Below are positions 12,917 to 53,899 of a DNA stretch of 64,000 nucleotides, one piece after another. Numbering within the stretch: the first letter of the stretch is position 1; each line of letters starts with the position of its first letter. Source of the DNA: an uncultured Gammaproteobacteria bacterium (GTDB lineage: Bacteria; Patescibacteriota; Microgenomatia; CAZETR01; Amesbacteraceae). The notes below the pieces were generated by a model. That model was not told the origin of the DNA and did no database searches. It saw only the letters and a list, made by a program, of their open reading frames with translations. The translations under genes and the position numbers were made by a program. The DNA is taken from the NCBI GenBank assembly GCA_964502885.1, contig CAZCXU010000001.1:93352-157351 (forward strand), written 5' to 3'.

Positions 12917-14275
12917 ATGGATAAGGAAAAAACCTGGACAAGTGTACTCGCGTCCCTAAAAACTGAAGTGTCTGAGGGAATTTTTAACACCTATCTGAAA
13001 AATACTCACATTGTAGACATCCAGGAAAATGATCAACGAACAATTTTTGAAATAGGATGCAACTCCACATTTATAAGAAACACATTAGACCTTCGCTATC
13101 ACGGACAAATTGCTAGGGAATTATCCAGAGTAACAGGCAAAACAGCAGAGGTGGTAATTAAAGTTGCGGAAAAGAAAATTGAACTTGATGAAAAAGGAAC
13201 TCTTTTTGAGACACCCAAGGCCACCGTTTTTTCTGATGCATGGAGAAAGGCCAACCTGAAAGCTGACTTTACCTTTGAAAATTATGCTGTGTCCGGAAGC
13301 AACCAGATGGCGTATGCGGCCGCACAGGCCGTGGCGAAAAAATTGGGAGAAACATACAATCCATTGTTTATATACGGTGGGGTGGGGGTGGGGAAAACAC
13401 ATTTAATGCAAGCGATAGGTCACGAAGCCTTGCGAAATTCAAATGGACAGGTATTGTTTTGTTCCGGAGAGGAATTTACGAATGACCTAGTCGAAGCTAT
13501 TAGATTTAAAACTACGGATAAAGTTAGATCAAAGTATCGCAAAGTAAAACTTCTCATGATTGATGATGTGCAATTTATTGCCGGAAAACCCACAGTGCAG
13601 GAAGAATTTTTCCATACGTTTAACGCTATACAGCGCGACGGGGGTCAGGTCGTTATGACATCAGATAAGCCCCCCGGAGAAATTGCCAAGCTAGAGGAAA
13701 GGCTGAGAAGCCGGTTTGGGGCTGGCTTAATTGTCGACGTAGGGCCGGCAGACTTTGAATTGAGATCTGCAATTGTTCTAATTAAAGCCAAACAAAGAAA
13801 CATGGAAATCTCAATGGAAACAGCTCAAACGATTGCGGCAAATGTTACCGGAGTGCGAGAACTACAGGGGGCATTAATTAAACTGGAAACAGAAGAGCGA
13901 ATTCGGGGAAAAAAATTAGACATGGAGGAAATTTTGAAACTTTTGAATGTTCAAAACGAAGAAGCTATTAAATCCAGATTTATTACTCCAACTGAAGTCA
14001 TAAACCAGATCGGAAATTATTACGGAGTGGGCGTGCAACAACTTAAGGGTGAGAAAAGAACCAAGACGATTGTTTGGCCACGACAAATATTAATGTTTAT
14101 ATTACGCCACGATCTTAAACTACCATTGGAAGAAGTTGGAAGGCTGCTGGGAGGAAGAGACCACACCACAGTATTGCACGCCACAGACAAAGTCCGAGGG
14201 GAATTGGACCAGAACCATAAATTTGCAGCCGAAATGGCGGATGTTAAAAGAAAAATCTTTGGTGGTGGAGCATAA
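12917..14275 (+). CDS. dnaA: chromosomal replication initiator DnaA
   Basis: AAA+ Walker A GGVGVGKTHL, a C-terminal DnaA-box binding domain, and position upstream of dnaN. Confidence 0.9.
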   Translation: MDKEKTWTSVLASLKTEVSEGIFNTYLKNTHIVDIQENDQRTIFEIGCNSTFIRNTLDLRYHGQIARELSRVTGKTAEVVIKVAEKKIELDEKGTLFETPKATVFSDAWRKANLKADFTFENYAVSGSNQMAYAAAQAVAKKLGETYNPLFIYGGVGVGKTHLMQAIGHEALRNSNGQVLFCSGEEFTNDLVEAIRFKTTDKVRSKYRKVKLLMIDDVQFIAGKPTVQEEFFHTFNAIQRDGGQVVMTSDKPPGEIAKLEERLRSRFGAGLIVDVGPADFELRSAIVLIKAKQRNMEISMETAQTIAANVTGVRELQGALIKLETEERIRGKKLDMEEILKLLNVQNEEAIKSRFITPTEVINQIGNYYGVGVQQLKGEKRTKTIVWPRQILMFILRHDLKLPLEEVGRLLGGRDHTTVLHATDKVRGELDQNHKFAAEMADVKRKIFGGGA

Positions 14276-14528
14276 CGACATGAACAATTTGTGGACAAAG
14301 TGTGTGCGGGCAGGGGATGGGAGGAAAAAACTTGTGAATAAACACAATAAGTTGTTCACACCTAGTGGATTTTTTTTAATTTATCCACAATAATGTGCAC
14401 AAGTTTACATAGTAGGTTTTACACAAGAAATTAACCCGAAAGTTGAGTGCGATAATGCAAAATAATCAACTTATCCACAATACCTACTACTGAGACGACT
14501 ATTTTAGATATAAAAATATCGATACCGA
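14276..14528. promoter_or_regulatory. oriC-like dnaA-dnaN intergenic region with DnaA boxes and an AT-rich stretch
   Basis: TTATCCACA at 14381-14389 and 14471-14479. Variant TTGTCCACA (reverse) at 14290-14298. AT-rich TTTTTTTAATTT at 14371-14382. Confidence 0.6.
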
Positions 14529-15647
14529 ATGAAAACAACAGTTTTACAAAGTGATCTGGCAAAATGTTTGGGAACAGTCAGCAGAGTGATACCCAGCAGA
14601 GGGCAGTTGCCTGTGTTGGCAAATGTGCTATTGGAGGCACGCAAAGATGGATTGACCCTAGTAGCAACAAATCTGGAACTTGGAATTCGTGTAATGGTGG
14701 GGGGAAAGATTGAGGAGGAGGGTGACATAACTATTCCGGCGAAAAACTTAACTGAATTTGTATCATCGTTGCCTGCAGGGAGCGTTGATCTATCGACTGA
14801 TGGGGAGAAGATGCTTATTAAGGGCGGAAAGCTATCTGCGACCTTTACAGGGATTTCAGCGATGGAATTTCCGGTGGTACCAAAGATCGAAAGTGTACAA
14901 GGTGGACGAATAGTAAAGATTAAAAGGGCGATGATGGAAAAAGTTGCAAAACAAGTTGCTTTTGCTGCAGCTACAGATGAGAGTAGGCCAGTTTTGACAG
15001 GTGTGGTTTTTATGAGTGAGGGAAATATATTGAAAATTACGGCAAGTGATGGATTTCGATTGAGCAGGAGATTTATTGAGATGGAAAGGGGGTTATGGTT
15101 ATCGGATAAAAGGTTGATTCTTCCGGCAAGAACACTATTGGAGATGTCAAGAATTGCAGCAGAGGGTAAAAAGGAAGAGATTGAGATGGCTGAAATAGCT
15201 GAGAATAACCAGGTTATTATGGCTTACGATGGAATTCAGCTTACATCGCGGATACTGGAGGGTAATTTTCCTGATGTAGAAAAGATTATTCCCGTGGATA
15301 CCAGAACAAAGATTACTCTTGATAGGCAGGAAATGCTGCGGGCGGTTAAGGCAGTGGGGATATTTGCAAGGGACAGTTCGAATATTATCAGGCTTAGAAT
15401 TCAAGATGGCGGGATGATGGTGGAGGCAAGCGCTACTCAGACAGGAGAGAGCACTGTTGAATTGGAAGGGGAGAAGACTGGAGACGATGGACAGATTGCT
15501 TTCAATTACCGGTTTGTGTTGGACTTTTTGAATAGTGTGGATAGTGAGAGAGTTACCTTTGGAATGAATGACAGCCTGGCCTCAGGGTTGTTTGGAATTG
15601 ATGGTGACAATGAATTGCTGCACTTGATAATGCCGGTAAGAGTCTAA
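14529..15647 (+). CDS. dnaN: DNA polymerase III beta sliding clamp
   Basis: 372 aa with the three-domain clamp pattern, directly after dnaA. Confidence 0.9.
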   Translation: MKTTVLQSDLAKCLGTVSRVIPSRGQLPVLANVLLEARKDGLTLVATNLELGIRVMVGGKIEEEGDITIPAKNLTEFVSSLPAGSVDLSTDGEKMLIKGGKLSATFTGISAMEFPVVPKIESVQGGRIVKIKRAMMEKVAKQVAFAAATDESRPVLTGVVFMSEGNILKITASDGFRLSRRFIEMERGLWLSDKRLILPARTLLEMSRIAAEGKKEEIEMAEIAENNQVIMAYDGIQLTSRILEGNFPDVEKIIPVDTRTKITLDRQEMLRAVKAVGIFARDSSNIIRLRIQDGGMMVEASATQTGESTVELEGEKTGDDGQIAFNYRFVLDFLNSVDSERVTFGMNDSLASGLFGIDGDNELLHLIMPVRV

Positions 15648-19839: not shown

Positions 19840-20931
19840 TTAGGTTTTTCCGTGAATAATAACAGGGCTAATAATACTGCCTTTGGCTTGAATAGAAACC
19901 GGGTCAAAAGTTAAACCTTCCTTTTCGGCGATGACGTTGTAAGTTCCGGCTGGCAAGGGAATGGCAATTTGGAACTGACCGAGACGATTGGTTCTTAGGG
20001 CCCGTGCAGGAATACCTGTCTTGGTATCAATAATCTCTACAGTTGTTTGTGCTAACGGCTGGGAAGCTGCATCTACAACCATGCCGGTGAGAATATTCGG
20101 ACTGGCAGGATTGGGAAGCTGAGTGGTGACTGTAGCAGATGGGGCTGAAGGAATATTTACAGGTTTGGGAAGCGGGGGAGTGTTAGCAACAACAGCTGAA
20201 ACACCAGAGGAGGTGAGAATTGGTGAGGTAGGAGTGGTGGGTGTAGCTAAAACTGTTTGTGGTGACGCTTCGGCGTGGGGTGTGCCTGCCGATGAGAAAG
20301 AGGTTGAGATGGTTGGAGTTGAGGTGGAATTTTTAACTGGAGATGTAAAGACTGGTTGGGCGCGTGCAGGGGAAGTGGGGATAGGTGCAGAAGAAGGGGC
20401 AGATGTAGGGATAATGGGGGGAACAGTTGAATTAGGAGCGGGTGTGGGAACAATGGAGGAAATGGCTGAGTTAGGAGTAGTTGATGGAGGTAGAGTTTTT
20501 GCGGTGGACATCTGCGGTTCAATTTTTATGGCAGCAGGAATTGGTGCCGGAACGGTGGTGACTGGTTGAGGTGTAGGTGGCGACGGTGGAGCGGCTGTTG
20601 CAGTGGGTGTGATTGGTGGGGGTGGGGCAAGGCTCGCAACGATTTCGTCAGAGATCCAGACATACTCAGTGGGAGAATAGATGGCTTTAAAAAAAGCGAC
20701 GAGCCAAGTGGTAAAGGGTCGATTGTTGATAGGGATAAAGGCCATGAGTGCACCCGTGGTGATGGAAATAAAAACCAGCGGGTATTTGATTATGGGGATT
20801 AATTGGAGACGGAAAATGAGCACCCCCACAACAATGCCTCCTGCCAGCTGGAGAAATTGCTTGAGGGTCATATCGCCCACGAGACGGAACTCGTAGGAGG
20901 AAATATTTTGCGGGACAGGGTGGTTATCCAT
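19840..20931 (-). CDS. PrgI/VirB3-like membrane protein fused to a long Pro/Thr/Ser-rich linker and a C-terminal beta-sandwich (CarbopepD_reg-like) domain
   Basis: N-terminus FRLVGDMTLKQFLQLAGGIVVGVLIF...NNRPFTTWLVAFFKAIYSP resembles the PrgI family and sits directly upstream of VirB4. The C-terminus GTYNVIAEKEGLTFDPVSI is beta-sandwich-like. Confidence 0.4.
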   Translation of the reverse strand: MDNHPVPQNISSYEFRLVGDMTLKQFLQLAGGIVVGVLIFRLQLIPIIKYPLVFISITTGALMAFIPINNRPFTTWLVAFFKAIYSPTEYVWISDEIVASLAPPPPITPTATAAPPSPPTPQPVTTVPAPIPAAIKIEPQMSTAKTLPPSTTPNSAISSIVPTPAPNSTVPPIIPTSAPSSAPIPTSPARAQPVFTSPVKNSTSTPTISTSFSSAGTPHAEASPQTVLATPTTPTSPILTSSGVSAVVANTPPLPKPVNIPSAPSATVTTQLPNPASPNILTGMVVDAASQPLAQTTVEIIDTKTGIPARALRTNRLGQFQIAIPLPAGTYNVIAEKEGLTFDPVSIQAKGSIISPVIIHGKT

Positions 20932-29484: not shown

Positions 29485-29880
29485 TTAGGAGCAGCCGATG
29501 CCTCTGGCTATACAGATATCAAATATTCCCAAATTGATACCGAGGAAAGTGCCAATAAGGTTGACTATTACGAATGCTGACAAGGTGATTATTAATCCTG
29601 CAAGAGAAAAGATAATTGTATTTCTTGCTTGTTCGGTTTGGGCTTTGTCTGCTCCTGCAGCTAGATACTTGTATCCACCAATAACCAGAAATCCTAAAGA
29701 AATGAAAACAAAAAGGCTGATGATTGCGGTAATCGCAGCGGCTATTACTCTATTTAGGTTCTGGAGCATTGCGGGCGGAGTAGGGTTTGCAATTGTTGTT
29801 TGAGCTTGAGCGACAGTAGGCCATGCTAATACGAATACAGATGCGGCCAACGTGATCAGTGAGCGAATTGTTGTGTACAT
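29485..29880 (-). CDS. VirB2/TrbC-like pilin paralog 1 of 11
   Basis: Signal peptide ...VAQA, two hydrophobic helices flanking the AAGADKAQTEQARN loop, and a C-terminal Cys pair. Confidence 0.5.
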   Translation of the reverse strand: MYTTIRSLITLAASVFVLAWPTVAQAQTTIANPTPPAMLQNLNRVIAAAITAIISLFVFISLGFLVIGGYKYLAAGADKAQTEQARNTIIFSLAGLIITLSAFVIVNLIGTFLGINLGIFDICIARGIGCS

Positions 29881-29960
29881 CTGTTTTTAATATAGGGCAA
29901 AAAAACAACCCCGGCAAGGGCCCGGGGTTGTTTTGGCCATTTCTGGCCGGTTCCAAAAAC

Positions 29961-30326
29961 TTATGAACCAATCGTTGCGAGATTGAATTCGATAAGGTTG
30001 ACGTTGAAGAGAACACGCAGAATGTACAGTAAGGCGTAAGCAGAGAAGACGATTGCCAAACCGATTAAGGCGGCAGTGATCTTCTTGCGAGCTTTTTCGG
30101 TACCTTCTTTGTCTCCACCAGCGAGAATCCATTGTAAACCACCCCAAAGTAGGATGATAAAGGAAGCTACGCCAGCGATACCCAACATAAGATTCAAGAT
30201 GGTTCTCAAGAAATCTGATGGGGTATAGTTCTTCAAAGTGTCGAAACGTGTATCGACGTTAGCCACGCTACCGACATCCGAGTCTGGAATAGGAAGAGCA
30301 AGTTGTGCAAGTAGTCTCATCATCAA
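29961..30326 (-). CDS. VirB2/TrbC-like pilin paralog 2 of 11
   Basis: Core LLWGGLQWILAGGDKEGTEKARKKITAALIGLAIVFSAYALLYIL. Confidence 0.5.
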   Translation of the reverse strand: MMMRLLAQLALPIPDSDVGSVANVDTRFDTLKNYTPSDFLRTILNLMLGIAGVASFIILLWGGLQWILAGGDKEGTEKARKKITAALIGLAIVFSAYALLYILRVLFNVNLIEFNLATIGS

Positions 30327-30379
30327 ATCTCACCGCCTTTCAGTGGAAAGTATAACATAAAATCAGTGCCGGAGGCTAA

Positions 30380-30754
30380 TTAGAGGGGTGTGATAGTGTA
30401 CTCAATGAGATTGACGTTGAAGAGGGTACGGATGATATACAGAATCGCATAGGATGAAAATACGATAGCCAATCCTATGAGAGCATAGCTGATTTTGCGG
30501 CGAGCTTTCTCGACTGCGTCTTTGTCGGATCCAGCGGTAATCCATTGAAACCCACCTATTAGGAGGAATAAGAATGCGGCAACACCTGACAGGCCCAGGA
30601 GGGCAAGAATCGACGTGCGGATATAGCTGGCGGGCTGAATATTGTAGGTGTTAGCAAAAGGAGAGTTGGGGTCGCGTAGATCTATTAATTGCTGGGCATC
30701 AATAGAAGGAGGAAAGAGAAGCAAGCTTGCCAGGAGAGCGAGAATCAGTTTCAT
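30380..30754 (-). CDS. VirB2/TrbC-like pilin paralog 3 of 11
   Basis: Signal peptide plus core LLIGGFQWITAGSDKDAVEKARRKISYALIGLAIVFSSYAILYII. Confidence 0.5.
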   Translation of the reverse strand: MKLILALLASLLLFPPSIDAQQLIDLRDPNSPFANTYNIQPASYIRTSILALLGLSGVAAFLFLLIGGFQWITAGSDKDAVEKARRKISYALIGLAIVFSSYAILYIIRTLFNVNLIEYTITPL

Positions 30755-30782
30755 GTGAGTTCGAGTTTATAAGAAAGGGTTG

Positions 30783-31454
30783 TCAGTTACAAGGGATGCA
30801 GGTAATCAGGCCACATCCAGTCGTGCCGAGCGGAGTCCAAGAGCCGTTTGATTCGCATCGGAAACATGGACCATTTATGACAGATGTTGATCCTAACGTG
30901 CCTGCCGGAATGCATCTTCCAGTTGCAGATCCGCCACAGGCACACATGCCGGATGGTGGGGTGATGTCGCAGCCGGGATCTGTGGGGTTAGTACAAGGAA
31001 TCCCTGAATCCCAGGGATCACTACCAGGAGCAGGTGGGTTGGGGTCGTTGATCTGAGAGGAAATTTCCCCGATATGTCCGAGGTTGAATTGAATTAAATT
31101 GATGTTAAAGAGGGTGCGGAGAGCAAAAAGGAAACTGTAGGCTGAAAAAACAATTACCAGTCCAATTAAAGCCTGAACAACCTTTCTGCGGGCTTTTTCA
31201 ATTGCGTCTTTATCACCACCAGCCAGTATCCACTGAATACCGCCGATAAGCAGGAATATAAAAGAAAAAACTCCTGCCAGTTGGAGGAGAAGGTTTAGAA
31301 GTGTGGTCAATATCATTGATGGGGTGAGGCTGCGAATTGTCGTAAAATCCGGATCGACGTTTTGTTCTATGCCAATGTAGTCTTGTGCTTTTGCGGTTGC
31401 AGGCATTAAGAACATAGAAATAACTGTGGAGATGTGAACCAGGTGGTTTCGCAT
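30783..31454 (-). CDS. VirB2/TrbC-like pilin paralog 4 of 11 with C-terminal Cys-rich extension
   Basis: Pilin core IQWILAGGDKDAIEKARRKVVQALIGLVIVFSAY, plus a ~100-aa C-terminal tail with 12 Cys. Confidence 0.5.
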   Translation of the reverse strand: MRNHLVHISTVISMFLMPATAKAQDYIGIEQNVDPDFTTIRSLTPSMILTTLLNLLLQLAGVFSFIFLLIGGIQWILAGGDKDAIEKARRKVVQALIGLVIVFSAYSFLFALRTLFNINLIQFNLGHIGEISSQINDPNPPAPGSDPWDSGIPCTNPTDPGCDITPPSGMCACGGSATGRCIPAGTLGSTSVINGPCFRCESNGSWTPLGTTGCGLITCIPCN

Positions 31455-31460
31455 GGGTAA

Positions 31461-31802
31461 TTAGAGGTTTCTTAAGGTGAATCCAATCGGATTTACATTA
31501 AATAGGACACGCAATATATAAAGAATGGCGTAGGAAGAAAAGACGATAACTAAACCTATCAGCGCGTTGATGATTTTACGGCGGGCTTTGTCGATACCAT
31601 CTTTGTCGCCACCGGCAGTAATCCACTGAACTCCACCCCAGAGCAGATAAATAAAGAAGCCAACACCAGCAAGACCCAAGAGAAGACTGATGGCTGTAGC
31701 GACATAAGCGGAGGGTTTGAGGTTTGTAATGTAGTCGTAGTTGCTGTCACCAGAATTGACAGTGATGGGAACAAATTGAGCCAATAGGTGTTGGTTGATC
31801 AT
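31461..31802 (-). CDS. VirB2/TrbC-like pilin paralog 5 of 11
   Basis: Core LLWGGVQWITAGGDKDGIDKARRKIINALIGLVIVFSSYAILYIL. Confidence 0.5.
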   Translation of the reverse strand: MINQHLLAQFVPITVNSGDSNYDYITNLKPSAYVATAISLLLGLAGVGFFIYLLWGGVQWITAGGDKDGIDKARRKIINALIGLVIVFSSYAILYILRVLFNVNPIGFTLRNL

Positions 31803-32131
31803 AGTTCAGGAACGTTGAGGGAGAGAATCGAGACGCCAAATAACACTTCGATTATCCAAATGATTACGAATGAAGAAAGAAGTATGGCAATTCCAATAAG
31901 GGCATTACGAATACGGTGTGTGGCTTTCTGGACGCCTTCCTTATCTCCGCCGGCGGTGATATAGGCAAAACCACCCATTAACAAGTTGACGAAAAAATAA
32001 ATTCCACTTAATCCCATGACGGCATTTAAGACGTTTCTTAGTAGCAACTGGACCATGCTGTCAGCCTCGTTGACGTTGATATTTCCGATTTGACTGTTGA
32101 CCGCAGGGTTGACGATGGTAAACAGATACAT
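31799..32131 (-). CDS. VirB2/TrbC-like pilin paralog 6 of 11
   Basis: Core LLMGGFAYITAGGDKEGVQKATHRIRNALIGIAILLSSFVII. ATGA overlap with paralog 5. Confidence 0.5.
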   Translation of the reverse strand: MYLFTIVNPAVNSQIGNINVNEADSMVQLLLRNVLNAVMGLSGIYFFVNLLMGGFAYITAGGDKEGVQKATHRIRNALIGIAILLSSFVIIWIIEVLFGVSILSLNVPEL

Positions 32132-32134
32132 ATT

Positions 32135-32518
32135 TTAAGGTGAAGCAACAATTAACTGCAATCCGAGACGAAAGATGTCCAATCCCAGGAATCGGCCAAT
32201 GATTCCAATTAGTCCGTATGATCCAACAACTATGAACATACCCAATATGGAAGTGGAAAGACGTTTTTTGCTTACCTCCACGGTATTTTTATCGCCACCG
32301 GCACCAATCCACTGCATTCCGGAAAGGACTATTTGATAGATGAACCAAAGTGACGCGACTATAGTGAGTAAACCGAGGATAGAAGAAACAAATTTTTCCA
32401 ACATATCTCCGGGCCCTCCACCTGTGCCAGTCATAAAAAGTCCTGAATGTCCAAATGTACCCAGAGGTCCGACACCGTCAATGTTTCCCAAGTTGACTTG
32501 AGCTAAAAGGTTTCTCAT
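32135..32518 (-). CDS. VirB2/TrbC-like pilin paralog 7 of 11
   Basis: Core MQWIGAGGDKNTVEVSKKRLSTSILGMFIVVGSYGLIGII. Start set at the internal Met (ATGA overlap with paralog 8); the ORF track extends to 32554. Confidence 0.45.
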   Translation of the reverse strand: MRNLLAQVNLGNIDGVGPLGTFGHSGLFMTGTGGGPGDMLEKFVSSILGLLTIVASLWFIYQIVLSGMQWIGAGGDKNTVEVSKKRLSTSILGMFIVVGSYGLIGIIGRFLGLDIFRLGLQLIVASP

Positions 32519-32874
32519 GGGGTGAATATCCGTGGTGAAATAAGCGTGTTCCATCCATTAATACCATACAGGAAGAGGCCGATGACGCTGGCGATGACTA
32601 ATGATCCGGTGACTATGGCTAGTCCCAGAAAGGATTGCCAAATGCGCTCGTGGGCTTTTTGGACCATTTTGGGGTCGCCATTTGCGCTTAAGTATCCATA
32701 CCCTGCCAAAATTAGATTGATCAATGTGTATATACCAGCCAGGATTATGGAGAGTCGGATGAGGCTGCTAAGAATTAAGATAAGACCTTCGCCCTGAGTG
32801 CCAGCTGCGAGTCTGGGATTGTTGTATCCGGATGTCCCAAATGGATTGTCGATAGTGCCGAATGCTCCTAACAT
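32515..32874 (-). CDS. VirB2/TrbC-like pilin paralog 8 of 11
   Basis: Core LILAGYGYLSANGDPKMVQKAHERIWQSFLGLAIVTGSLVIASVIG. Confidence 0.45.
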   Translation of the reverse strand: MLGAFGTIDNPFGTSGYNNPRLAAGTQGEGLILILSSLIRLSIILAGIYTLINLILAGYGYLSANGDPKMVQKAHERIWQSFLGLAIVTGSLVIASVIGLFLYGINGWNTLISPRIFTP

Positions 32875-32880
32875 AGTTTT

Positions 32881-33231
32881 TTAGACGAATGGCGGGTCAA
32901 TTAAGTTTACACCTGTAATGGTAGATATAATCTGAAGTATAAAATAAGCACTAATGACTAGCAATAAGCCCAGAACTCCATAAGTGACGGAATTTTTTCC
33001 TTGCTGAACACGTTGTGGAGGGTTGATTTGTCCGCCAAAGATAATTAGTAAGTAACCTCCGTGGATGATGAGATAAATGAAATAAAGACTGGCGATTGCC
33101 ATGGCATTGAGGAGTAAGAGAGAGACAATATCGCCCAATTGACCACGGAAAGGGGAGGTGGCCCCAACGTTGGGATGGTTGACGAAAAACTTGTCTTGCA
33201 AGTTTACTGGCGGGTTAAGAAGCTGAAACAT
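32881..33231 (-). CDS. VirB2/TrbC-like pilin paralog 9 of 11 (most divergent)
   Basis: Two hydrophobic helices flank the GGQINPPQRVQQGKNSVTYGVLGLLLVISAYFILQII loop. The C-terminus ILQIISTITGVNLI is shared with paralog 10. Confidence 0.4.
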   Translation of the reverse strand: MFQLLNPPVNLQDKFFVNHPNVGATSPFRGQLGDIVSLLLLNAMAIASLYFIYLIIHGGYLLIIFGGQINPPQRVQQGKNSVTYGVLGLLLVISAYFILQIISTITGVNLIDPPFV

Positions 33232-33234
33232 TTT

Positions 33235-33540
33235 TTAGATTAAGTTGGTGCGGGTAATAGTTTGAATTATTTGCAAAATAAAGAAGGCACTAACTACAGT
33301 AAGGAGGCCAAGAAGCGCGTTGGTGATCTGTCTTTTTATCTGCATGAGTTTGGCTTCGTCGCCCAGGCTTCCCATATATGCGAATCCCGCTGTAATCAGA
33401 TGGTAAAGAAAATAGAGTCCGGCTCCGGCCATGGCAAAGAGAATAGTGCGAGAGGCGATTGTTGAGGGTAGTGTGGCACTGGTCGAGAATCGGCCGGAGG
33501 TGTGGATGAAATCGGGAATCTGAGCTAAATGTGAGTTCAT
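33235..33540 (-). CDS. VirB2/TrbC-like pilin paralog 10 of 11
   Basis: Core FAYMGSLGDEAKLMQIKRQITNALLGLLTVVSAFFILQIIQTITRTNLI. Confidence 0.45.
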   Translation of the reverse strand: MNSHLAQIPDFIHTSGRFSTSATLPSTIASRTILFAMAGAGLYFLYHLITAGFAYMGSLGDEAKLMQIKRQITNALLGLLTVVSAFFILQIIQTITRTNLI

Positions 33541-34055
33541 TAGAGTCGGAAACCAAATAAGGAGAGACCTAAGACGTTAAATCCTAAGAAGTTGAGAACG
33601 ACGATGGCGGAAGTGATAAGAATTAAACCTAGTACTGCCGAGGTGAGTGTGTCTTTGGCGGAATTAATTTTTTTAGGGTCGCCTTCAGCGGTGGCAATAG
33701 TGAAACCCGCATATACGATCAGAAGAAGAGTAGCCAGGCCGGCCAAACCAACTGCCCAAGTAGCAATAATCCAGACTGTATTTTGAGTATCGGAGGTGGG
33801 TATACAACCTAAGGCTGTCCTAATAGCACCAGTGCCTGCACAAAAAGGATTTTGAGCATTACATTCTGCTACAGTGTCGCAACAAAGATGTTCCATAGGG
33901 TTTGCACATTGAGGGCGGGCGACACAGGGACTGTAAGTACCCCATATTGTTCGAGAACGGATTTCACACCAGCTGTAAGTTGGATCTGGGAGGGATAATA
34001 CTGACGTGACAAATAAAAGTGTTGTGATAAGTATTCTAAGTGGTGCAGATTTCAC
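33540..34055 (-). CDS. VirB2/TrbC-like pilin paralog 11 of 11 with N-terminal Cys-rich module
   Basis: Signal peptide, an 8-Cys N-terminal module, then the pilin hairpin GFTIATAEGDPKKINSAKDTLTSAVLGLILITSAIVVLNFLGF. Confidence 0.45.
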   Translation of the reverse strand: MKSAPLRILITTLLFVTSVLSLPDPTYSWCEIRSRTIWGTYSPCVARPQCANPMEHLCCDTVAECNAQNPFCAGTGAIRTALGCIPTSDTQNTVWIIATWAVGLAGLATLLLIVYAGFTIATAEGDPKKINSAKDTLTSAVLGLILITSAIVVLNFLGFNVLGLSLFGFRL

Positions 34056-36913: not shown

Positions 36914-38773
36914 ATGGAATTAGCCGTGGGAAAAATTTCCGGTAATATGGGTGACAATTTTTGGGGGCAGGTACTGACTTATGCTCCCAATGAAGAAGAC
37001 TTGAAAAATGTCCGTGGAGAGTTGGTTGTGGTATTGGGTATAGATGGGGAGGGTGGGCAAATAGAAACAATGAAAAAAGGGAGGGAGGTATTGAGTGAGA
37101 TTCAAAATGGGTATTTCTCAGGCAAGAAAGAGTCTAATTTTGAATCTCTGAAGGAAGCGGTGGAAACTGGAGTTTCAGGAGATGCGAGGGTGCAGGTCGG
37201 GTGTGTGGCTTTAGCCAGAGATTGCTGGCAAGTTGTGGTTTGGGGCGGAATGGGTGTATGGGTGCAGAACGGAACTAAAAGTGGGTATGTGGTAAGGCCG
37301 GGGAGGGCTTCGGGAGATTTGATTGCTGTGAGCGGAAAGTTGAGTGTGGGAGGTGTGGTGGTTTTGGGCAATCAAGTTTTTTTTGCGGGAATTTCTGAAA
37401 GCGAACTTCCGAAATTTGTTATCCGTGGGGATGTGGACTTTGCCGCTGAGGCAATGAGGGGGGTTTTACAGAAAGCGAGTGGGGTTGGAGGTGGGTGGGT
37501 GGGGGTTGTTTTGAAACAAAATGCTCATAGGGAGACAAAGAAATTTGAGGTAGTAGATAAACAAAAAGAACTTGTTTCTGAAGGGGCTTTTCGGCCAAGC
37601 TATCCAAGCTATGGACAACGACTGCTTAACAAATTCTTGATGGCGGCATCGAGGATTTATGTCAAAAGGGGAGACAGAGAAGATCAGCGGCGAAAAGTGC
37701 GTTATCTGGGGCTAGGGCTAGTGGCTACACTTTTGATAATGGTGGGGGTGGGACATTTTACCGCGAAGAAAAATGATAATTCAAAAAGCGAATCAGTTTT
37801 TTCGTTTGTCTCGGTTGAAGAAAAAATAAATGAAGCCGCTGAGTTGGCCGATCTGAATCCAGCCAGAACTAAGGAGTTACTGATTGATGTGAAGAGTGCG
37901 ATGAGCAATTTGAAAGGAAATAAGAATGATGTTCAAAAAATAGGGGTATTGGAGACCCGATGGAATGAAATCTGGCAAAGAGCTTCCGGGATAGTAAAGT
38001 TGGAAGTGAAAGAAGTTGTGGATCTGACCTTGGTAAGAGAGGGGATGCAGGGGCGGCGGATGGTGAAAGTAAAAGATAAGTTGTTTGTGTTGGATGGGGA
38101 TTTGGGCAGAGTAGTGGAAGTTACATATGCTAACGGATCGGCTAAGGTGGTCGGTGGAGGAAATCCAATCGCACAGGCGACGTTGATTGCCAATTATCTG
38201 GAACGTGTTTTTGTGATGACCCCCAACGGAATGGTTGAGATCGGAGAATCGGTGGTGAAACTGAAGCCTGGTGAAAGTTGGGGAGCTATTGCTGATATGA
38301 AGTTGTTTGGAGGAAATGTGTATTTGCTGGATAGCGAAAAAGGGGAGGTGTGGAGACATCAGGTAAAAGGAGCTGAGTGGGGAAGCGCTCAAAAGTGGCT
38401 GGCGGATGGGAACGGGGGTGCGGCAATTGTGGGCGCAAAATCTATGTTGATAGACGGCAGTATTTATGTAATAGGAAGAAATGGAATGAGTAAGTTTACT
38501 CGGGGAATAGAAGACAGAGTTGCGGTGGAGGGTTTGGATGAAATGTGGGGCGATGGGGTGGTGGCTTGGACAGGAGAAGATGACGAGAATATATATGTGC
38601 TGGATGGTGACAAAAAGCGGATTGTGGTGATTAGTAAACAGGGGGCGTATAAAAAACAATTTGTAGCAGATGTGTTCGCGGGAGCCAGCGATTTAGCTGT
38701 TGATGAGGATCGAGGCGAGATTTTTGTACTTTCCGGTGGTAAAGTCTGGGCTGCAAAGTATGAAAGTAACTAG
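36914..38773 (+). CDS. hypothetical single-pass membrane protein with C-terminal beta-propeller-like repeats
   Basis: Central TM LGLGLVATLLIMVGVGHF. Repeated motifs IYVLDGDKKRIVV, VYLLDSEKGEVWRH, LFVLDGDLGRVVEV and IFVLSGGKVWAAKY. Confidence 0.45.
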   Translation: MELAVGKISGNMGDNFWGQVLTYAPNEEDLKNVRGELVVVLGIDGEGGQIETMKKGREVLSEIQNGYFSGKKESNFESLKEAVETGVSGDARVQVGCVALARDCWQVVVWGGMGVWVQNGTKSGYVVRPGRASGDLIAVSGKLSVGGVVVLGNQVFFAGISESELPKFVIRGDVDFAAEAMRGVLQKASGVGGGWVGVVLKQNAHRETKKFEVVDKQKELVSEGAFRPSYPSYGQRLLNKFLMAASRIYVKRGDREDQRRKVRYLGLGLVATLLIMVGVGHFTAKKNDNSKSESVFSFVSVEEKINEAAELADLNPARTKELLIDVKSAMSNLKGNKNDVQKIGVLETRWNEIWQRASGIVKLEVKEVVDLTLVREGMQGRRMVKVKDKLFVLDGDLGRVVEVTYANGSAKVVGGGNPIAQATLIANYLERVFVMTPNGMVEIGESVVKLKPGESWGAIADMKLFGGNVYLLDSEKGEVWRHQVKGAEWGSAQKWLADGNGGAAIVGAKSMLIDGSIYVIGRNGMSKFTRGIEDRVAVEGLDEMWGDGVVAWTGEDDENIYVLDGDKKRIVVISKQGAYKKQFVADVFAGASDLAVDEDRGEIFVLSGGKVWAAKYESN

Positions 38774-39203
38774 CAAAAAAGCATATTTTAATTATGAGTT
38801 GGGTGAGCGGATGGAGGCGGGTATTGTGTTGACGGGAGCTGAGGCAAAATCGGCGTTTTTGGGACAAATTGATTTGGATGATGCGTATATTAAAATCCGG
38901 TCGGGGCAGCATAAGGGAATGGAAGCCTGGGTTACCAACATGAAGATATTTCCGTACAAGCATGCGGATAACACCAATTATGATCAGGCGCGGATGCGAA
39001 AACTTTTATTGCATCAAAAAGAGATTCTGGAATTGATGAACAAAATGAAGCAAATGAACAGAATTGTCGTGCCGGTTGCCGCATATACTAAAAGCGGGAG
39101 AATAAAAATTGAGTTGGCGCTGGCTAGAGGCAAAAGAGTTTATGAGAAGAGAGAGAAGATTAAGAAGCGAGATCAGGAAAGGGATGCAGAAAGATTGCAA
39201 TGA
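38760..39203 (+). CDS. smpB: SsrA-binding protein SmpB
   Basis: MKVTSKKAYFNYELGERMEAGIVLTGAEAKS is the SmpB N-terminal signature. Start chosen at the internal ATG (the ORF track begins at 38700). Confidence 0.8.
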   Translation: MKVTSKKAYFNYELGERMEAGIVLTGAEAKSAFLGQIDLDDAYIKIRSGQHKGMEAWVTNMKIFPYKHADNTNYDQARMRKLLLHQKEILELMNKMKQMNRIVVPVAAYTKSGRIKIELALARGKRVYEKREKIKKRDQERDAERLQ

Positions 39204-40166: not shown

Positions 40167-40240
40167 CAAATATATTATGTGTGTCGCGTCTGACGCGATC
40201 ACCTTGCAAACACGTCTTCTTGCGAAGCCGCGTTTGACGC

Positions 40241-40639
40241 GGTGGAGATGGAGGGAGTTGAACCCTCGTCTGTGTAAGTTTTGAAAACCGGTTTATTACA
40301 AGTTTGTTTGGTATAAAGCTGCCAACAGCTGCTGGTTAGTTGGTCTTTTTTCGATTTAGGATAACCAAAGCCGATCGAAAGCATTCCGATAGGGTTTATC
40401 ACTAAAGAAAAGTTATCGGAAAAACAATTCTTGAGTGTCGGCTTGTCCCTACTTAAGCGTAAAGCATGCGAGGGGCAAACTGAGTGCTGAAGATGGAGTT
40501 GAAAGGATTGACCTTTGCAACAAAACCTTCAACGCGTGCTTTTAAGTTAGCACTTTGTTTTGAATCTGTTTTACGAGTGTGATTCGAACTCGACTTGCCG
40601 ATATTTCAAGGTGCTTATACATCGAAACCCGTCATCCCC
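40241..40639 (-). ncRNA. ssrA: tmRNA (SsrA)
   Basis: Minus-strand 5' end GGGGATGACGGGTTTCGATG and 3' end GAGGGTTCAACTCCCTCCATCTCCACC form the tRNA-Ala-like acceptor with a G3:U wobble, the GGTTCAACTCC T-arm and an encoded CC. An internal short ORF could supply the tag. smpB lies 1 kb away. Confidence 0.7.
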
Positions 40640-42709: not shown

Positions 42710-42974
42710 CAAATGAGATTATTAAATAAGAAATCATTATTACTAATATTGCTGGGTGGGATTTTTTACTTGTCATTTTATGTGTTTGGTTTGCTACATC
42801 GTATTGGGTTTCCTATTACACATCCCATTTATGCAGATTGTATTGGACACAAAAGGGTGTTTGAAGATTCAAGGGGTATAAGAAGAGTCGCGTGCTATGG
42901 ATTTATATACAACATCTGGCTTGAGTAAAGGGTTTTTTAGTTGTATTACAATTTGTTGTTTTTGGGGATGTGGG

Positions 42975-43095
42975 CGGAAGGGGCGAATATTGAACTTCGT
43001 TCAAGAATCTCGCAAGACAGCGGAAGGGGCGAGATGGTGTGCGGTGCTTCGCATCCTCCGTTATCTCGCACTCTTTCTTCGCAGCGGAGCTGCTG
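42975..43095 (-). repeat. Two degenerate partial copies of the tRNA-Ser(TGA) 3' end
   Basis: CGGAAGGGGCGA at 42975 and 43011 repeats the tRNA 3' acceptor/T-arm sequence at 43096. The 42975 copy extends to ...ATATTGAACTTCG, against the genuine ...GATTCGAACTCGCG. Confidence 0.5.
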
Positions 43096-43181
43096 CGGAA
43101 GGGGCGAGATTCGAACTCGCGAGGGTGTTGCCACCCTAGAGGTTTTCAAGACCTCCGCACTCGACCACTATGCGACCCTTC
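43096..43181 (-). tRNA. tRNA-Ser (anticodon TGA)
   Basis: Reverse complement GGAAGGGTCGCATAGTGGTCGAGTGCGGAGGTCTTGAAAACCTC...GTTCGAATCTCGCCCCTTCCG, with a long variable arm. Confidence 0.75.
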
Positions 43182-43216
43182 CTAGTGCAAATTAGCCTCC
43201 AAAATTATACCATTCA

Positions 43217-51724: not shown

Positions 51725-52852
51725 AATAAAAAGGGGGAGGAAAGTTCGAAGAGAAGAAGTTTTTGTGGCAAGAAATATAAATAAGGGAAAGGAGACGCTT
51801 TGAAAGCGGGTAAATGCGGCCAGATCGCGAACTAACAAGGGGGTAAGAAAGATCGATAAGGATACGCCCCAAAGAACAAGGGGAAGGGTTTTACGGCTAA
51901 GATATAACAAGATGATCACAAAAAAAGCAACGAGGTTGTCAAGCTGGGAAGCGTGAACAGTATGGAAAGGTAGGTCTATTGTTTTCATAAGTAGTATGAG
52001 GTTGAGAATGGGGGCGGGAAGAACCATCGGACTGTACCAAACTGATTGGATGGCGAAGAAATAGATGGGATTATGTGCGGTTAAGTAATTGAATACCATC
52101 CAAACCAACATGGGTAGGCCGATGATTGTCGGATATACAACAGCCGTAAGCGGTTTAATTTTGGTTTCGACTATGGATTTAATCAGAATGAACAGGAAGA
52201 TGAAATTGACCAGAACAACTGTTCCTTTGGTTACATTTATCAGACCCAGCAGGATGGACGCGGGGAGGAACTTCTTTTGTAATAGGAAGTAGCTAAACCA
52301 GACAAGGAACAGCATTAGCAATGATTCCGCGTAATATGAGCGGAAAAAAATGGAAAAAGGGAAGACAAAAAGCAGCCAGGAAGCGCGTATGGCTATTTGT
52401 GGATTGTATAGCCTTGAAATTACAATCATTAAACTGAGAAAATTGCATACAAGAAGGATTTGAGTGAGGATAAAGGCGGCGAGTAACGAGTCTTTGAAAA
52501 TGACTTTGGTGAGCCAGCCTAGTAGTGGAAATGCAGGGAAAAAGGCATACGAAGGATTTTGCATAAGACTTTTGTCGTTGAGTGATTGCTCTGTGGGAGA
52601 AAACGAGTATCCAGAATCAATAATTTTTAAATACCATTGGGCGTCAAACTGGGCCATTCCGTGAAGAAGGTTGAAACCTTTTCCTGTGATGCGGGGATCT
52701 GTGAAGTAGTGGTGGGCATCATTGTGGTATGAAAAGCGGTTGAGGGGGATGAATGTGTGGAAAGTGCCGATAAAAAAGTAAAGAAGTGTATTGAATAGCA
52801 TAAATAACAAAGTGTGGCGAATCAGTATGTGTGGGGTTGGGGGGCCAGCCAT
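51662..52852 (-). CDS. polytopic membrane protein, GT-C/DUF2029-like mannosyltransferase (tentative)
   Basis: 396 aa, multi-TM. The FDAQWYLKIIDSGY motif is typical of GT-C mannosyltransferase loop 1. Confidence 0.4.
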   Translation of the reverse strand: MAGPPTPHILIRHTLLFMLFNTLLYFFIGTFHTFIPLNRFSYHNDAHHYFTDPRITGKGFNLLHGMAQFDAQWYLKIIDSGYSFSPTEQSLNDKSLMQNPSYAFFPAFPLLGWLTKVIFKDSLLAAFILTQILLVCNFLSLMIVISRLYNPQIAIRASWLLFVFPFSIFFRSYYAESLLMLFLVWFSYFLLQKKFLPASILLGLINVTKGTVVLVNFIFLFILIKSIVETKIKPLTAVVYPTIIGLPMLVWMVFNYLTAHNPIYFFAIQSVWYSPMVLPAPILNLILLMKTIDLPFHTVHASQLDNLVAFFVIILLYLSRKTLPLVLWGVSLSIFLTPLLVRDLAAFTRFQSVSFPLFIFLATKTSSLRTFLPLFILSALGLCLVSLFFVNWYWIG

Positions 52853-52885
52853 GATAAAATTCTACAGCAGTGTGGAGTTGGTTTT

Positions 52886-53094
52886 GGAGAGGTCGCATAC
52901 AGGAGCCTCTATCTTCAACCTCGCGGTTGAAGTTTCTCCTGTATTACTTCCTCTCCTCGTTTCACTTGGAGAGGTCGCATATCAAACTTGCAGTTTGATA
53001 TAGCTTGCCGTGCTTTGTCAAAAATTGTAAAAATTTTTGAGTCGCAGGGCGCACTATAGCAAGCTATTTGACCTTATTTGTAATAAAATTTACT
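52886..53094 (+). repeat. Two partial 5' copies of tRNA-Ser(GGA), each followed by a strong hairpin
   Basis: GGAGAGGTCGCATA at 52886, 52968 and 53101 (the gene). Flank GTTTTG is also duplicated at 52880 and 53094. The 52886 copy forms a 71-nt element closed by GGAGAGG...CCTCTCC. The 52968 copy is followed by a perfect hairpin ATATCAAACTTGCAGTTTGATAT. Confidence 0.5.
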
Positions 53095-53100
53095 GGTTTT

Positions 53101-53187
53101 GGAGAGGTCGCATAGTGGTCTAGTGCGCACGCTTGGAAAGCGTGTGTCGCCGAAAGGTGACCGCGAGTTCAAATCTCGCCCTCTCCG
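53101..53187 (+). tRNA. tRNA-Ser (anticodon GGA; CCA encoded at 53188-53190)
   Basis: GGAGAGGTCGCATAGTGGTCTAGTGCGCACGCTTGGAAAGCGTGT...GAGTTCAAATCTCGCCCTCTCCGcca. Confidence 0.75.
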
Positions 53188-53190
53188 CCA

Positions 53191-53465
53191 ATTCGGATTC
53201 GAAAAAAGCTTTTTTAACTCCACTGCTGGTTTGTATTTATGGTGACCGTCGCGTCGAACGCGACTAACGCGCCTCGTCCCGTTAAGCGGGACGCGTGGAA
53301 TCACGAACAAATCTTGCCCTCTTTGGCCAATTCGGATTCGAAAAGAGCTTTTTTAACTCCACTGCTGGTTTGTATTTATGGTGACCGTCGCGTCGAACGC
53401 GACTAACGCGCCTCGTCCCGTTAAGCGGGACGCGTGGAATCACGAACAAATCTTGCCCTCCTTTT
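53191..53465 (+). repeat. 2x tandem direct repeat (~139 bp unit) immediately 3' of tRNA-Ser(GGA); each unit ends in a tRNA-3'-end-like sequence
   Basis: Units 53191-53329 and 53330-~53464 are near-identical. Each contains hairpins GTCGCGTCGAACGCGAC and CGTCCCGTTAAGCGGGACG and ends ...ACAAATCTTGCCCTCTTTGGCCA, against the tRNA 3' end TCAAATCTCGCCCTCTCCGCCA. Confidence 0.6.
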
Positions 53466-53470
53466 AAATC

Positions 53471-53899
53471 ATGTCTGAAGTAAAATTGGAGCATATGCGA
53501 ACAAATGTGAGGGTGGGGGCGATAATTGAGAGGGATGGAAAAATGCTTCTTATTCACCGTTGGAAAAACGGAGATGAATATTGGGTATTGGTTGGTGGTG
53601 GGGTAGAAGAGGGAGAAGATTTGGTTGAGGCGTTGAAACGGGAAGTATTGGAAGAGACCTCTTTGCGGTTGAAGAACTGGGAAGTTGAGATAGAACATGA
53701 AGCAATGGGGATGATGCATAAAATTTTCCGTTGTGTTACTGAAGAAGGGGAGCCTGTATTGGGTGGTCCTGAAAAAGAGGCAGATTCTGATGAAAATAGA
53801 TATGTACTGGAGTGGGTAGATTTTTCTACTATTGCTGAGATTGAGGATATTTACCCGAGAGTCACAAGAGAACTAGCCAGGAAACGCATCGCAAAGTGA
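53471..53899 (+). CDS. NUDIX hydrolase
   Basis: Nudix box GGGVEEGEDLVEALKREVLEETS. Confidence 0.7.
   Translation: MSEVKLEHMRTNVRVGAIIERDGKMLLIHRWKNGDEYWVLVGGGVEEGEDLVEALKREVLEETSLRLKNWEVEIEHEAMGMMHKIFRCVTEEGEPVLGGPEKEADSDENRYVLEWVDFSTIAEIEDIYPRVTRELARKRIAK

Follow-up and report, generated by a model that had tools for sequence, protein, structure and literature searches.

In the window, by which we mean the whole stretch of 64,000 nucleotides that was analysed, a functional tRNA-Ser(GGA) gene with an encoded CCA is called by both ARAGORN and Rfam and is followed directly by a tandem array, beyond which lies a NUDIX gene (Table 1). Tandem Repeats Finder delimits the array to 53170-53460, with a period of 139 nucleotides, 2.1 copies, 96% matches and a score of 545, and a repeat search aligns 53187-53324 with 53326-53463 at 99% identity, which bears out the tandem repeat of about 139 bp and the two near-identical units described in the earlier note. 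Each unit is composed of a non-coding insert X of about 117-124 nt and a copy of the terminal part of the tRNA gene, and the X of unit 2 departs from that of unit 1 by a single A/G difference. The block running from the T-loop towards the 3' end, CAAATCTYGCCCTCY, occurs three times at the locus, against 0.21 matches in the window by chance. In the form CAAATCTCGCCCTCT it starts in the T-loop at 53170 without mismatch and recurs at 53308 with one and at 53447 with two mismatches; its sole match in the window outside the locus lies within tRNA-Ser(CGA). Shuffled windows held 0.21 matches of this form, and at least four matches were reached in none of 100 shuffles. The triplication of the tRNA 3' segment is therefore beyond chance, and its excess over shuffles argues against the chance similarity that the earlier note had named as part of what would undo its claim.

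Both units carry the terminal block, as had been claimed. Since unit 2 is devoid of a CCA, however, the CCA-bearing terminal copy is confined to unit 1: the latter closes with ...CTCTTTGGCCA, whereas the end of unit 2, CAAATCTTGCCCTCC, passes through TTTTAAATC into an ATG at 53471. A simple fusion of A with A' would not give the junction block A'' (TTTGGCCA): two to three extra changes would be needed in it, while the rest of the units differs by one base. The two units are distinguished by a SNP as well as by a unique junction, and outside this array the 139-nt unit is absent from the 64-kb window.

Table 1. Coordinates of the repeat features in the window, counted from its first letter.
Feature	Position	Strand	Description
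Two 3'-end copies of tRNA-Ser(TGA)	42974..43035	-	gene at 43095-43182 (-); 3 matches, 0.08 expected
B1	52879..52899	+	leader TGGTTTT (7 nt) and tRNA nt 1-14; repeat search, L161 comparison
Upstream unit 1 (with Y1)	52886..52956	+	rod-like hairpin with acceptor-like closing stem GGAGAGG/CCTCTCC; -35.7 kcal/mol, z = -8.0
B2	52966..52981	+	second upstream copy of the tRNA 5' end (TTGGAGAGGTCGCATA); repeat search
Upstream unit 2 filler (Y2)	52982..53093	+	AT-rich (34% GC), structured, fold z = -3.9; 3' end repeats ATAAAATT-TAC from the B1 flank
tRNA-Ser(GGA)	53101..53190	+	encoded CCA, functional; holds B3 (53094-53114 with leader) and block A (53170-53190, T-loop to CCA)
Unit 1	53191..53329	+	insert X (53191-53307) and block A'' (53308-53329, CAAATCTTGCCCTCTTTGGCCA)
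Two GC-rich 7-bp hairpins of unit 1	53248..53293	+	GTCGCGT/ACGCGAC (53248-53264) and CGTCCCG/CGGGACG (53275-53293); repeated in unit 2 at 53387-53432 (53387-53403 and 53414-53432)
Unit 2	53330..53464	+	X (53330-53446) and block A' (53447-53461, CAAATCTTGCCCTCC), without CCA
Synteny breakpoint	53493..53494	.	L159 identity starts at 53494

The two strong hairpins that had been noticed in each unit are real and were located in both. In addition, the termini of the unit pair together (53192-53200 with 53297-53307), and the ends of X form imperfect terminal inverted repeats (TTCGGATTC and GGAATCaCGAA). The fold of the whole unit, on the other hand, gains only modestly over shuffles, with z = -2.4 on the + strand and -1.6 on the - strand. 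A 55-codon ORF spans the units without a ribosome-binding site or further support, so the verdict that the unit is too small to encode anything holds in practice. Neither inside the downstream units nor between tRNA-Ser(GGA) and the NUDIX gene was a promoter or terminator match found, and ARAGORN and Rfam make no call inside the units. Searching 52700-53600 against Rfam at gathering and at permissive thresholds (E-value up to 10) returned nothing but the tRNA itself; the unit belongs to none of the Rfam families by this search.

Pfam analysis of 35 window ORFs yielded housekeeping and cell-envelope genes (dnaA, dnaN, smpB, sigma-70, glycosyltransferases, T4SS pilins). The dnaA-dnaN pair at 12917-15647 marks a likely replication-origin region. 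Small genes with T4SS-pilin domains run from 29485 to 34055 and a PrgI-family gene occupies 19840-20931, a combination that we presume to be typical of CPR genomes. A tmRNA at 40240-40639 (-) with an unusually long predicted tag (ARVEGFVAKVNPFNSIFSTQFAPRMLYA) adjoins smpB (38700-39203), and four tRNA-Ser and two tRNA-Arg genes lie within 11 kb (42.6-53.2 kb).

The earlier note overlooked that the 5' end of the same tRNA is triplicated as well, in a mirror image upstream of the gene. The tRNA 5' end GGAGAGGTCGCATA stands at 52886, 52968 and 53101, where 0.05 matches are expected, and the copies starting at 52879 and 53094 share 21 identical nucleotides, comprising 7 nt of leader and the first 14 nt of the tRNA. 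The flank of B1, but not that of B3, aligns to the flank of the tRNA in the distant relative L161 (CATGRTAAAATTCTA), and because B1 adjoins this conserved flank it is probably the ancestral 5' end. A shortened copy of the flank, ATAAAATT-TAC, is also found just before B3, and the 5' duplication therefore took in local leader sequence. In upstream unit 1, the 3' arm is mostly the reverse complement of the 5' arm, the first 7 nt of the tRNA included, and a terminator-like inner hairpin sits at 52913-52932. Global folding of 52879-53475 gave many alternative pairings among the end copies and no clean nested design. The locus as a whole has the architecture B1-Y1-B2-Y2-[tRNA]-X-A''-X-A'.

Comparison was possible with two close strains (L001, L159) and one distant relative (L161), the L-numbers being labels of the compared loci and contigs. 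The first of these, a contig of the Logan assembly of SRR12404947, shows 99.7% identity across 1225 nt downstream; it comprises the tRNA, a single unit (A-X-A') and the NUDIX gene. Given one unit in so close a strain, the two-unit state is a very recent tandem duplication of the A-X-A' allele. The second strain (L159, SRR22184562) is 98.5% identical from 53494 onward, with unrelated coding sequence upstream, and since identity begins only at that position the breakpoint in Table 1 was placed there. The annotated start of the NUDIX gene, ATG 53471, is probably wrong; the true start is probably ATG 53494, because homology with L159 and with the 134-aa cluster P0121 begins there. In L161 (GCA_964441445.1) the gene order is kept, with a 396-aa gene (42% identity), tRNA-Ser(GGA) (94%) and NUDIX (58%), and the tRNA shows the variable arm and GGTTTT leader of the window. 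There, the tRNA lies 38 nt from the upstream gene, a 182-aa gene stands between tRNA and NUDIX, and no copy of either tRNA end is present in 8.4 kb. On these alignments, the units are gains specific to the lineage, made at a locus that differs in content among relatives. The unit that was to be sought elsewhere thus turned up as one copy at the tRNA of L001, but at no second locus in the window, viral, metagenome or fetched loci. Metagenome contigs held no match to the lineage-specific 3' half of the tRNA, and look-up of the 396-aa and 432-aa neighbour proteins gave no exact record. Among homologues of the downstream glycosyltransferase, the nearest reaches an identity of only 54%, and L035 lacks synteny on the upstream side.

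The first 44 nt of tRNA-Ser(GGA) match 33 MAG loci, mostly labelled Patescibacteria/CPR. This segment is identical in MAGs (L002-L034) of Saccharibacteria, Gracilibacteria, Peregrinibacteria, Parcubacteria and others, which differ in variable arm and T-arm. Recurrence at other tRNAs was defined as a copy of the first or last 12 nt of a tRNA, with at most one mismatch, within 450 nt and outside other tRNAs. By this definition, short-range end copies accompany 10 of 51 tRNAs in the CPR loci versus 4 of 254 in a rough control of viral and proviral contig loci, as opposed to matched genomes (about 20% versus 1.6%; Fisher p = 4.5e-6). Repeats of the 3' end measure 13-26 nt; they begin within the T-loop or the 3' strand of the T-stem, 13-22 nt ahead of the discriminator, and reach 0-4 nt beyond the latter. 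Repeats of the 5' end begin 0-7 nt ahead of +1 and stop in the D-loop, at nt 13-18. The inserts measure 33-162 nt in all cases seen. Within the window, tRNA-Ser(TGA), which itself lacks an encoded CCA, is a second instance: its final 13-16 nt are copied twice, at distances of 75 and 121 nt downstream from the original block. At L025, a 5' copy is joined to a hairpin and CTCTCC in the manner of upstream unit 1 (fold z = -6.2). In L015, tRNA-Pro is followed by a 92-nt insert, a 26-nt repeat and tRNA-Glu, where the relatives L030 and L004 have a 7-nt spacer; L015 and these relatives make up a clean filled/empty pair. Trailer tandem repeats occur at the tRNA-Ser(GGA) genes of L021 (42 nt x 2.5) and L022 (62 nt x 2.1). 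The inserts of different loci are mutually unrelated and single-copy, with no shared family; the exceptions are a 19-nt hairpin common to two L008 insertions and a 50-nt match between the related MAGs L018 and L028. Short insertion together with duplication of a tRNA terminal block happens repeatedly and independently in these lineages.

Several further peculiarities were encountered around these tRNA genes. The second copy of the tRNA-Ser(TGA) end is preceded by GCGAG and a small hairpin, resembling a T-arm with an expanded loop. In L021, a decayed near-full-length tRNA copy with a 27-nt hairpin insertion in its D-arm lies upstream of tRNA-Ser(GGA) (1100-1480), and the downstream 42-nt units (2.5 copies) contain GCCGCCA. 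A pseudo-tRNA-Val in L008 (390-900, - strand) stands directly upstream of an intact tRNA-Val, and its D-loop, anticodon region and T-loop are separately interrupted by insertions; the T-loop insertion ends in the 19-nt hairpin CCAGGTTGRATAACCTGGC, and so does the insert that follows the neighbouring tRNA-Pro(GGG). The insert downstream of tRNA-Arg(GCG) in L018 (4223-4356, - strand) features a ribosome-binding-site-like motif and a 7-codon ORF, MTTIVIT; the corresponding stretch of L028 (5463-5512) is 82% similar to this insert region, and the insert resembles an attenuator leader peptide. Directly behind the tRNA in the CPR loci L005, L007, L014 and L021, the trailer folds back on the GCCA end (e.g. 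GCCAGGAAC...GTTCCTGGC), perhaps a structure conserved among tRNA-Ser(GGA) trailers.

The comparison with attL/attR duplications left by site-specific integration, drawn in the earlier note, was pursued further. In form it is apt: each block begins within the T-loop and extends to the tRNA 3' end or slightly beyond, and Williams in 2002 reportedly distinguished a T-loop sublocation class of tRNA integration sites. In IMG/VR contigs, the T-loop-to-CCA 23-mer of common tRNA-Ser genes turns up frequently; among the matches listed, 44 of 122 are stand-alone fragments, some starting as far back as the anticodon loop, others no further back than the T-arm. Since the ORFs neighbouring such fragments proved to be PF00589 integrases in all ten cases tested, the repeat in the window has the classical att form. 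On the viral contig L051 (2955-3163), two stand-alone tRNA-Ser 3' fragments, one starting in the anticodon loop and one in the T-loop, stand 186 nt apart, as if att remnants of two classes were stacked. Strain variation agrees with the comparison as well: L161 is bare (syntenic, tRNA 94% identical), L015 is filled where L030 and L004 are empty, L001 keeps one unit, and L159 departs entirely from the window ahead of 53494.

The search for an element proved less favourable. A profile built from those PF00589 integrases matches no window ORF, and Pfam detects no recombinase or transposase among the 35 window ORFs; the recombinase search advised in the earlier note thus found none within the window. 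Over 33-35 CPR loci the profile has a single match, a 301-aa protein of L006 with the domains PF13495 and PF02899, whose size and N-terminal domains we take to be those of an Xer-type recombinase; as a sign of an integrated element it was discarded, no matching repeat lying within 4.7 kb of it. Neither viral nor JGI metagenome contigs contain the unit core, viral contigs also lack the attP-type junctions of the L019 and L016 inserts, the 5' half of the CPR tRNA-Ser(GGA) was not found in IMG/VR contigs, and no collection searched contained a donor of X. In spite of its imperfect inverted ends, X likewise has no second locus in the 64 kb or the collections, as a MITE or other multi-copy repeat would. 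Moreover, we know of no tRNA-targeting integrase that yields mirror-image 5' duplications with local leader. The finding itself is real and its att-like form was rightly recognised, but with no recombinase in the window, no cognate element, inserts of 33-162 nt only and mirrored 5' duplications, the reading as an integrative element is only partly supported; "serial tRNA-tail duplication", also proposed, is correct as a description.

Among known systems, the tyrT/tyrV locus of E. coli K-12 (NC_000913.3, L158) is closest. There, 3.1 copies of a 178-nt unit lie downstream of tyrV, each ending in AATCCTTCCCCCACCACCA, the T-loop-to-CCA block of tRNA-Tyr, and the repeats carry the RttR small RNA and the tpr ORF. 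In both loci, the tandem units begin where a tRNA gene stops and close with its T-loop-to-CCA block (19 nt in E. coli; 15-22 nt here), the array finishes with a partial copy (3.1 in E. coli versus 2.1 here), and the units bear GC-rich hairpins. They differ in that sequence or Rfam homology is lacking, the period here is 139 as opposed to 178, there is no convincing Tpr-like ORF and the host gene is a tRNA-Ser in a probable CPR bacterium; unlike the window locus, the E. coli tyrT stretch examined also has no tandem array of 5'-end copies upstream. The rtT family, presumably Rfam accession RF00391, had no match at an E-value up to 10 in 52700-53600. Even for rtT, the function is poorly defined (bioRxiv 10.1101/2024.07.17.603846). 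Partial tRNAs, serial ones included, occur as integration scars (PMC9897764; bioRxiv 10.1101/2020.12.28.424599). With the attL/attR sites of tyrosine integrases, the locus shares direct repeats made of the tRNA 3' part from the T-loop, serial copies and strain-variable gene content beside the tRNA. It differs from them in the lack of integrase, cargo or cognate attP, in inserts of only 33-162 nt, in the untypical 5'-end duplications and inclusion of local leader or trailer, and in having no T-stem-like inverted repeat upstream of the displaced blocks. Bacterial rRNA intervening sequences (IVS) lie within a functional gene and are excised by RNase III; they resemble the inserts described here in length (about 100-150 nt), in ends that pair in a long stem, in loop positions and in sporadic occurrence among strains, whereas here the tRNA is left intact, with the inserts outside it and duplicated ends of the gene on their borders. 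MITEs and palindromic repeat elements are likewise short, non-coding and hairpin-forming, and X has imperfect terminal inverted repeats; on the contrary, the inserts are single-copy in all data searched and their flanking duplications of 13-26 nt far exceed usual target-site duplications.

Taken together, the 139-nt units are best read as neither a gene nor an autonomous element, and we see an even chance that they are non-coding scars of short insertions which duplicated the tRNA end, followed by one recent tandem duplication. To judge from anatomy and comparison, a short hairpin-rich X would have been inserted at the 3' end of tRNA-Ser(GGA), duplicating the terminal block of the gene from the T-loop onwards and yielding tRNA(A)-X-A', in the form of attL/attR or of a long target duplication. 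On the 5' side, like events would have duplicated the leader together with tRNA nt 1-14, ending in the D-loop. In a second step, which the strain comparison demonstrates, A-X-A' became A-X-A''-X-A' as the flanking repeats recombined unequally or slipped. Since no promoter or terminator match lies between tRNA and NUDIX, the units probably ride passively in the tRNA trailer, which is at the same time the NUDIX leader.

How the insertion came about may be envisaged in two ways. Recombination of the tyrosine-integrase type at the T-loop, with subsequent loss of nearly all of the element, is a serious candidate that falls somewhat short of an even chance; it would fit the 3' blocks and the variable gene content, but would not fit the tiny inserts, the missing integrase and the 5' duplications with leader. 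Capture of filler DNA during break repair or template switching, with duplication of local sequence, is a tentative proposal with perhaps a third of our confidence. A staggered break, or a template switch at the D-arm and T-arm hairpins, would account for both sides and for the palindromic modules, and suits the 5' copies better than the integrase route. Off-target spacer capture of the Cas1 type and casposon-like target duplication were set aside, as most inserts far exceed spacers and are without matching inverted ends.

Against reading the units as scars stands the strong self-complementarity of all modules (z = -8.0, -3.9, -2.4), and their placement, with a 5' mimic starting the upstream modules and a 3' mimic ending the downstream ones, would also fit selection for processing during tRNA maturation. 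The extra changes in junction A'', the lack of a recombinase in the window and of a donor of X in the collections searched, the small set of two close strains and one distant relative, and the control made up of viral and proviral contigs count against the scar reading as well. A processed small-RNA cassette akin to rtT, co-transcribed with the tRNA and released as structured RNAs with a regulatory or decoy role, is suggested by the layout of tyrT/rttR, where a 171-nt ncRNA is annotated on the repeats, by units bounded by tRNA-end mimics with stable hairpins and a closing stem, by the acceptor-like closed rods of upstream unit 1 and its L025 analogue (z = -8.0 and -6.2), by the missing terminator between tRNA and units and by trailer tandem repeats in other CPR lineages. 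We nevertheless consider it unlikely: X is missing from the syntenic L161, copy number varies between near-identical strains, the inserts of different lineages are unrelated and single-copy, Rfam gives no match, rtT included, the whole-unit z is only -2.4, and the 3' mimic is predicted to be single-stranded, forming no minihelix. It is the absence of conservation that weakens a functional-RNA reading. Still less probable, though not negligible, is a miniature non-autonomous element (CIME- or MITE-like) mobilised in trans, of which unit 2 would be a second integration by tandem accretion. The T-loop-to-CCA direct repeats of classical att form, of a kind that adjoins PF00589 integrases on viral contigs (10/10 tested), the imperfect terminal inverted repeats of X and the copy number of one versus two would all agree with such an element, but X occurs at no other locus (window, viral and JGI metagenome contigs), the 64 kb hold no integrase, the only nearby CPR recombinase (L006) looks Xer-type, the CPR tRNA-Ser(GGA) is not in IMG/VR and the 5' duplications include local leader.

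That the locus descends from tandem copies of the whole tRNA gene, an array of tRNA and spacer eroded to one copy, seems very improbable. Near-full-length pseudo-tRNAs with insertions do adjoin intact genes in L021 and L008, and an 8-nt match, GGTGACCG, is colinear within X; as a sign that X is a decayed tRNA, however, this 8-mer is not significant (longest common substring p = 0.13). Residual tRNA similarity amounts to z = 1.4 (p about 0.1) for X, 0.2 for Y1, 0.2 for Y2 and about 0 for nine analogue inserts, and the junctions are therefore sharp and not those of eroded gene copies. X and Y are thus without significant tRNA similarity although the end blocks are 87-100% identical, the repeat boundaries are non-random, with T-loop or D-loop on one side and the gene end on the other, and the empty site of L030/L004 has a 7-nt spacer only. 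Least credible of all, to the point of being almost dismissed, is chance similarity or an artefact of assembly: the window does come from a metagenome-assembled contig, in which tandem repeats can be mis-assembled, but the shuffle statistics speak against chance, an independent Logan assembly holds tRNA-X-A', and the units are marked by a SNP between them and a unique junction.

Taken alone, the window locus is a scar that varies among strains, and E. coli tyrT/rttR offers a classical counterpart to it. Its wider relevance is possible because end duplications look much commoner in CPR than in control loci and are mirrored at both gene ends, with D-loop and T-loop boundaries, a pattern that tRNA-targeting integrases are not known to leave. 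In CPR genomes, pieces of 30-160 nt that form hairpins might often be captured where the D-loop or T-loop of a tRNA gene lies, by a process as yet undescribed, with the terminal block duplicated so that a gene becomes wrapped in nested shells of its own termini; alternatively, selection might have kept the shells as modules of leader and trailer for excision by the enzymes of tRNA maturation. This generalisation is doubtful at present, and under the nested-shell reading the window locus, with two shells per side, would be the most elaborate example seen. Insertions have been reported in CPR rRNA genes, to which a process at tRNAs might relate. For practical purposes, tRNA-end fragments can mislead tRNA annotation as well as att-based island finders. 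It is the wider CPR pattern, more than the single locus, that is worth following up: if the CPR excess is confirmed, it would suggest either that structured RNA genes in these reduced genomes are subject to a separate mutational or insertional process, or that pre-tRNA processing modules have gone unrecognised.
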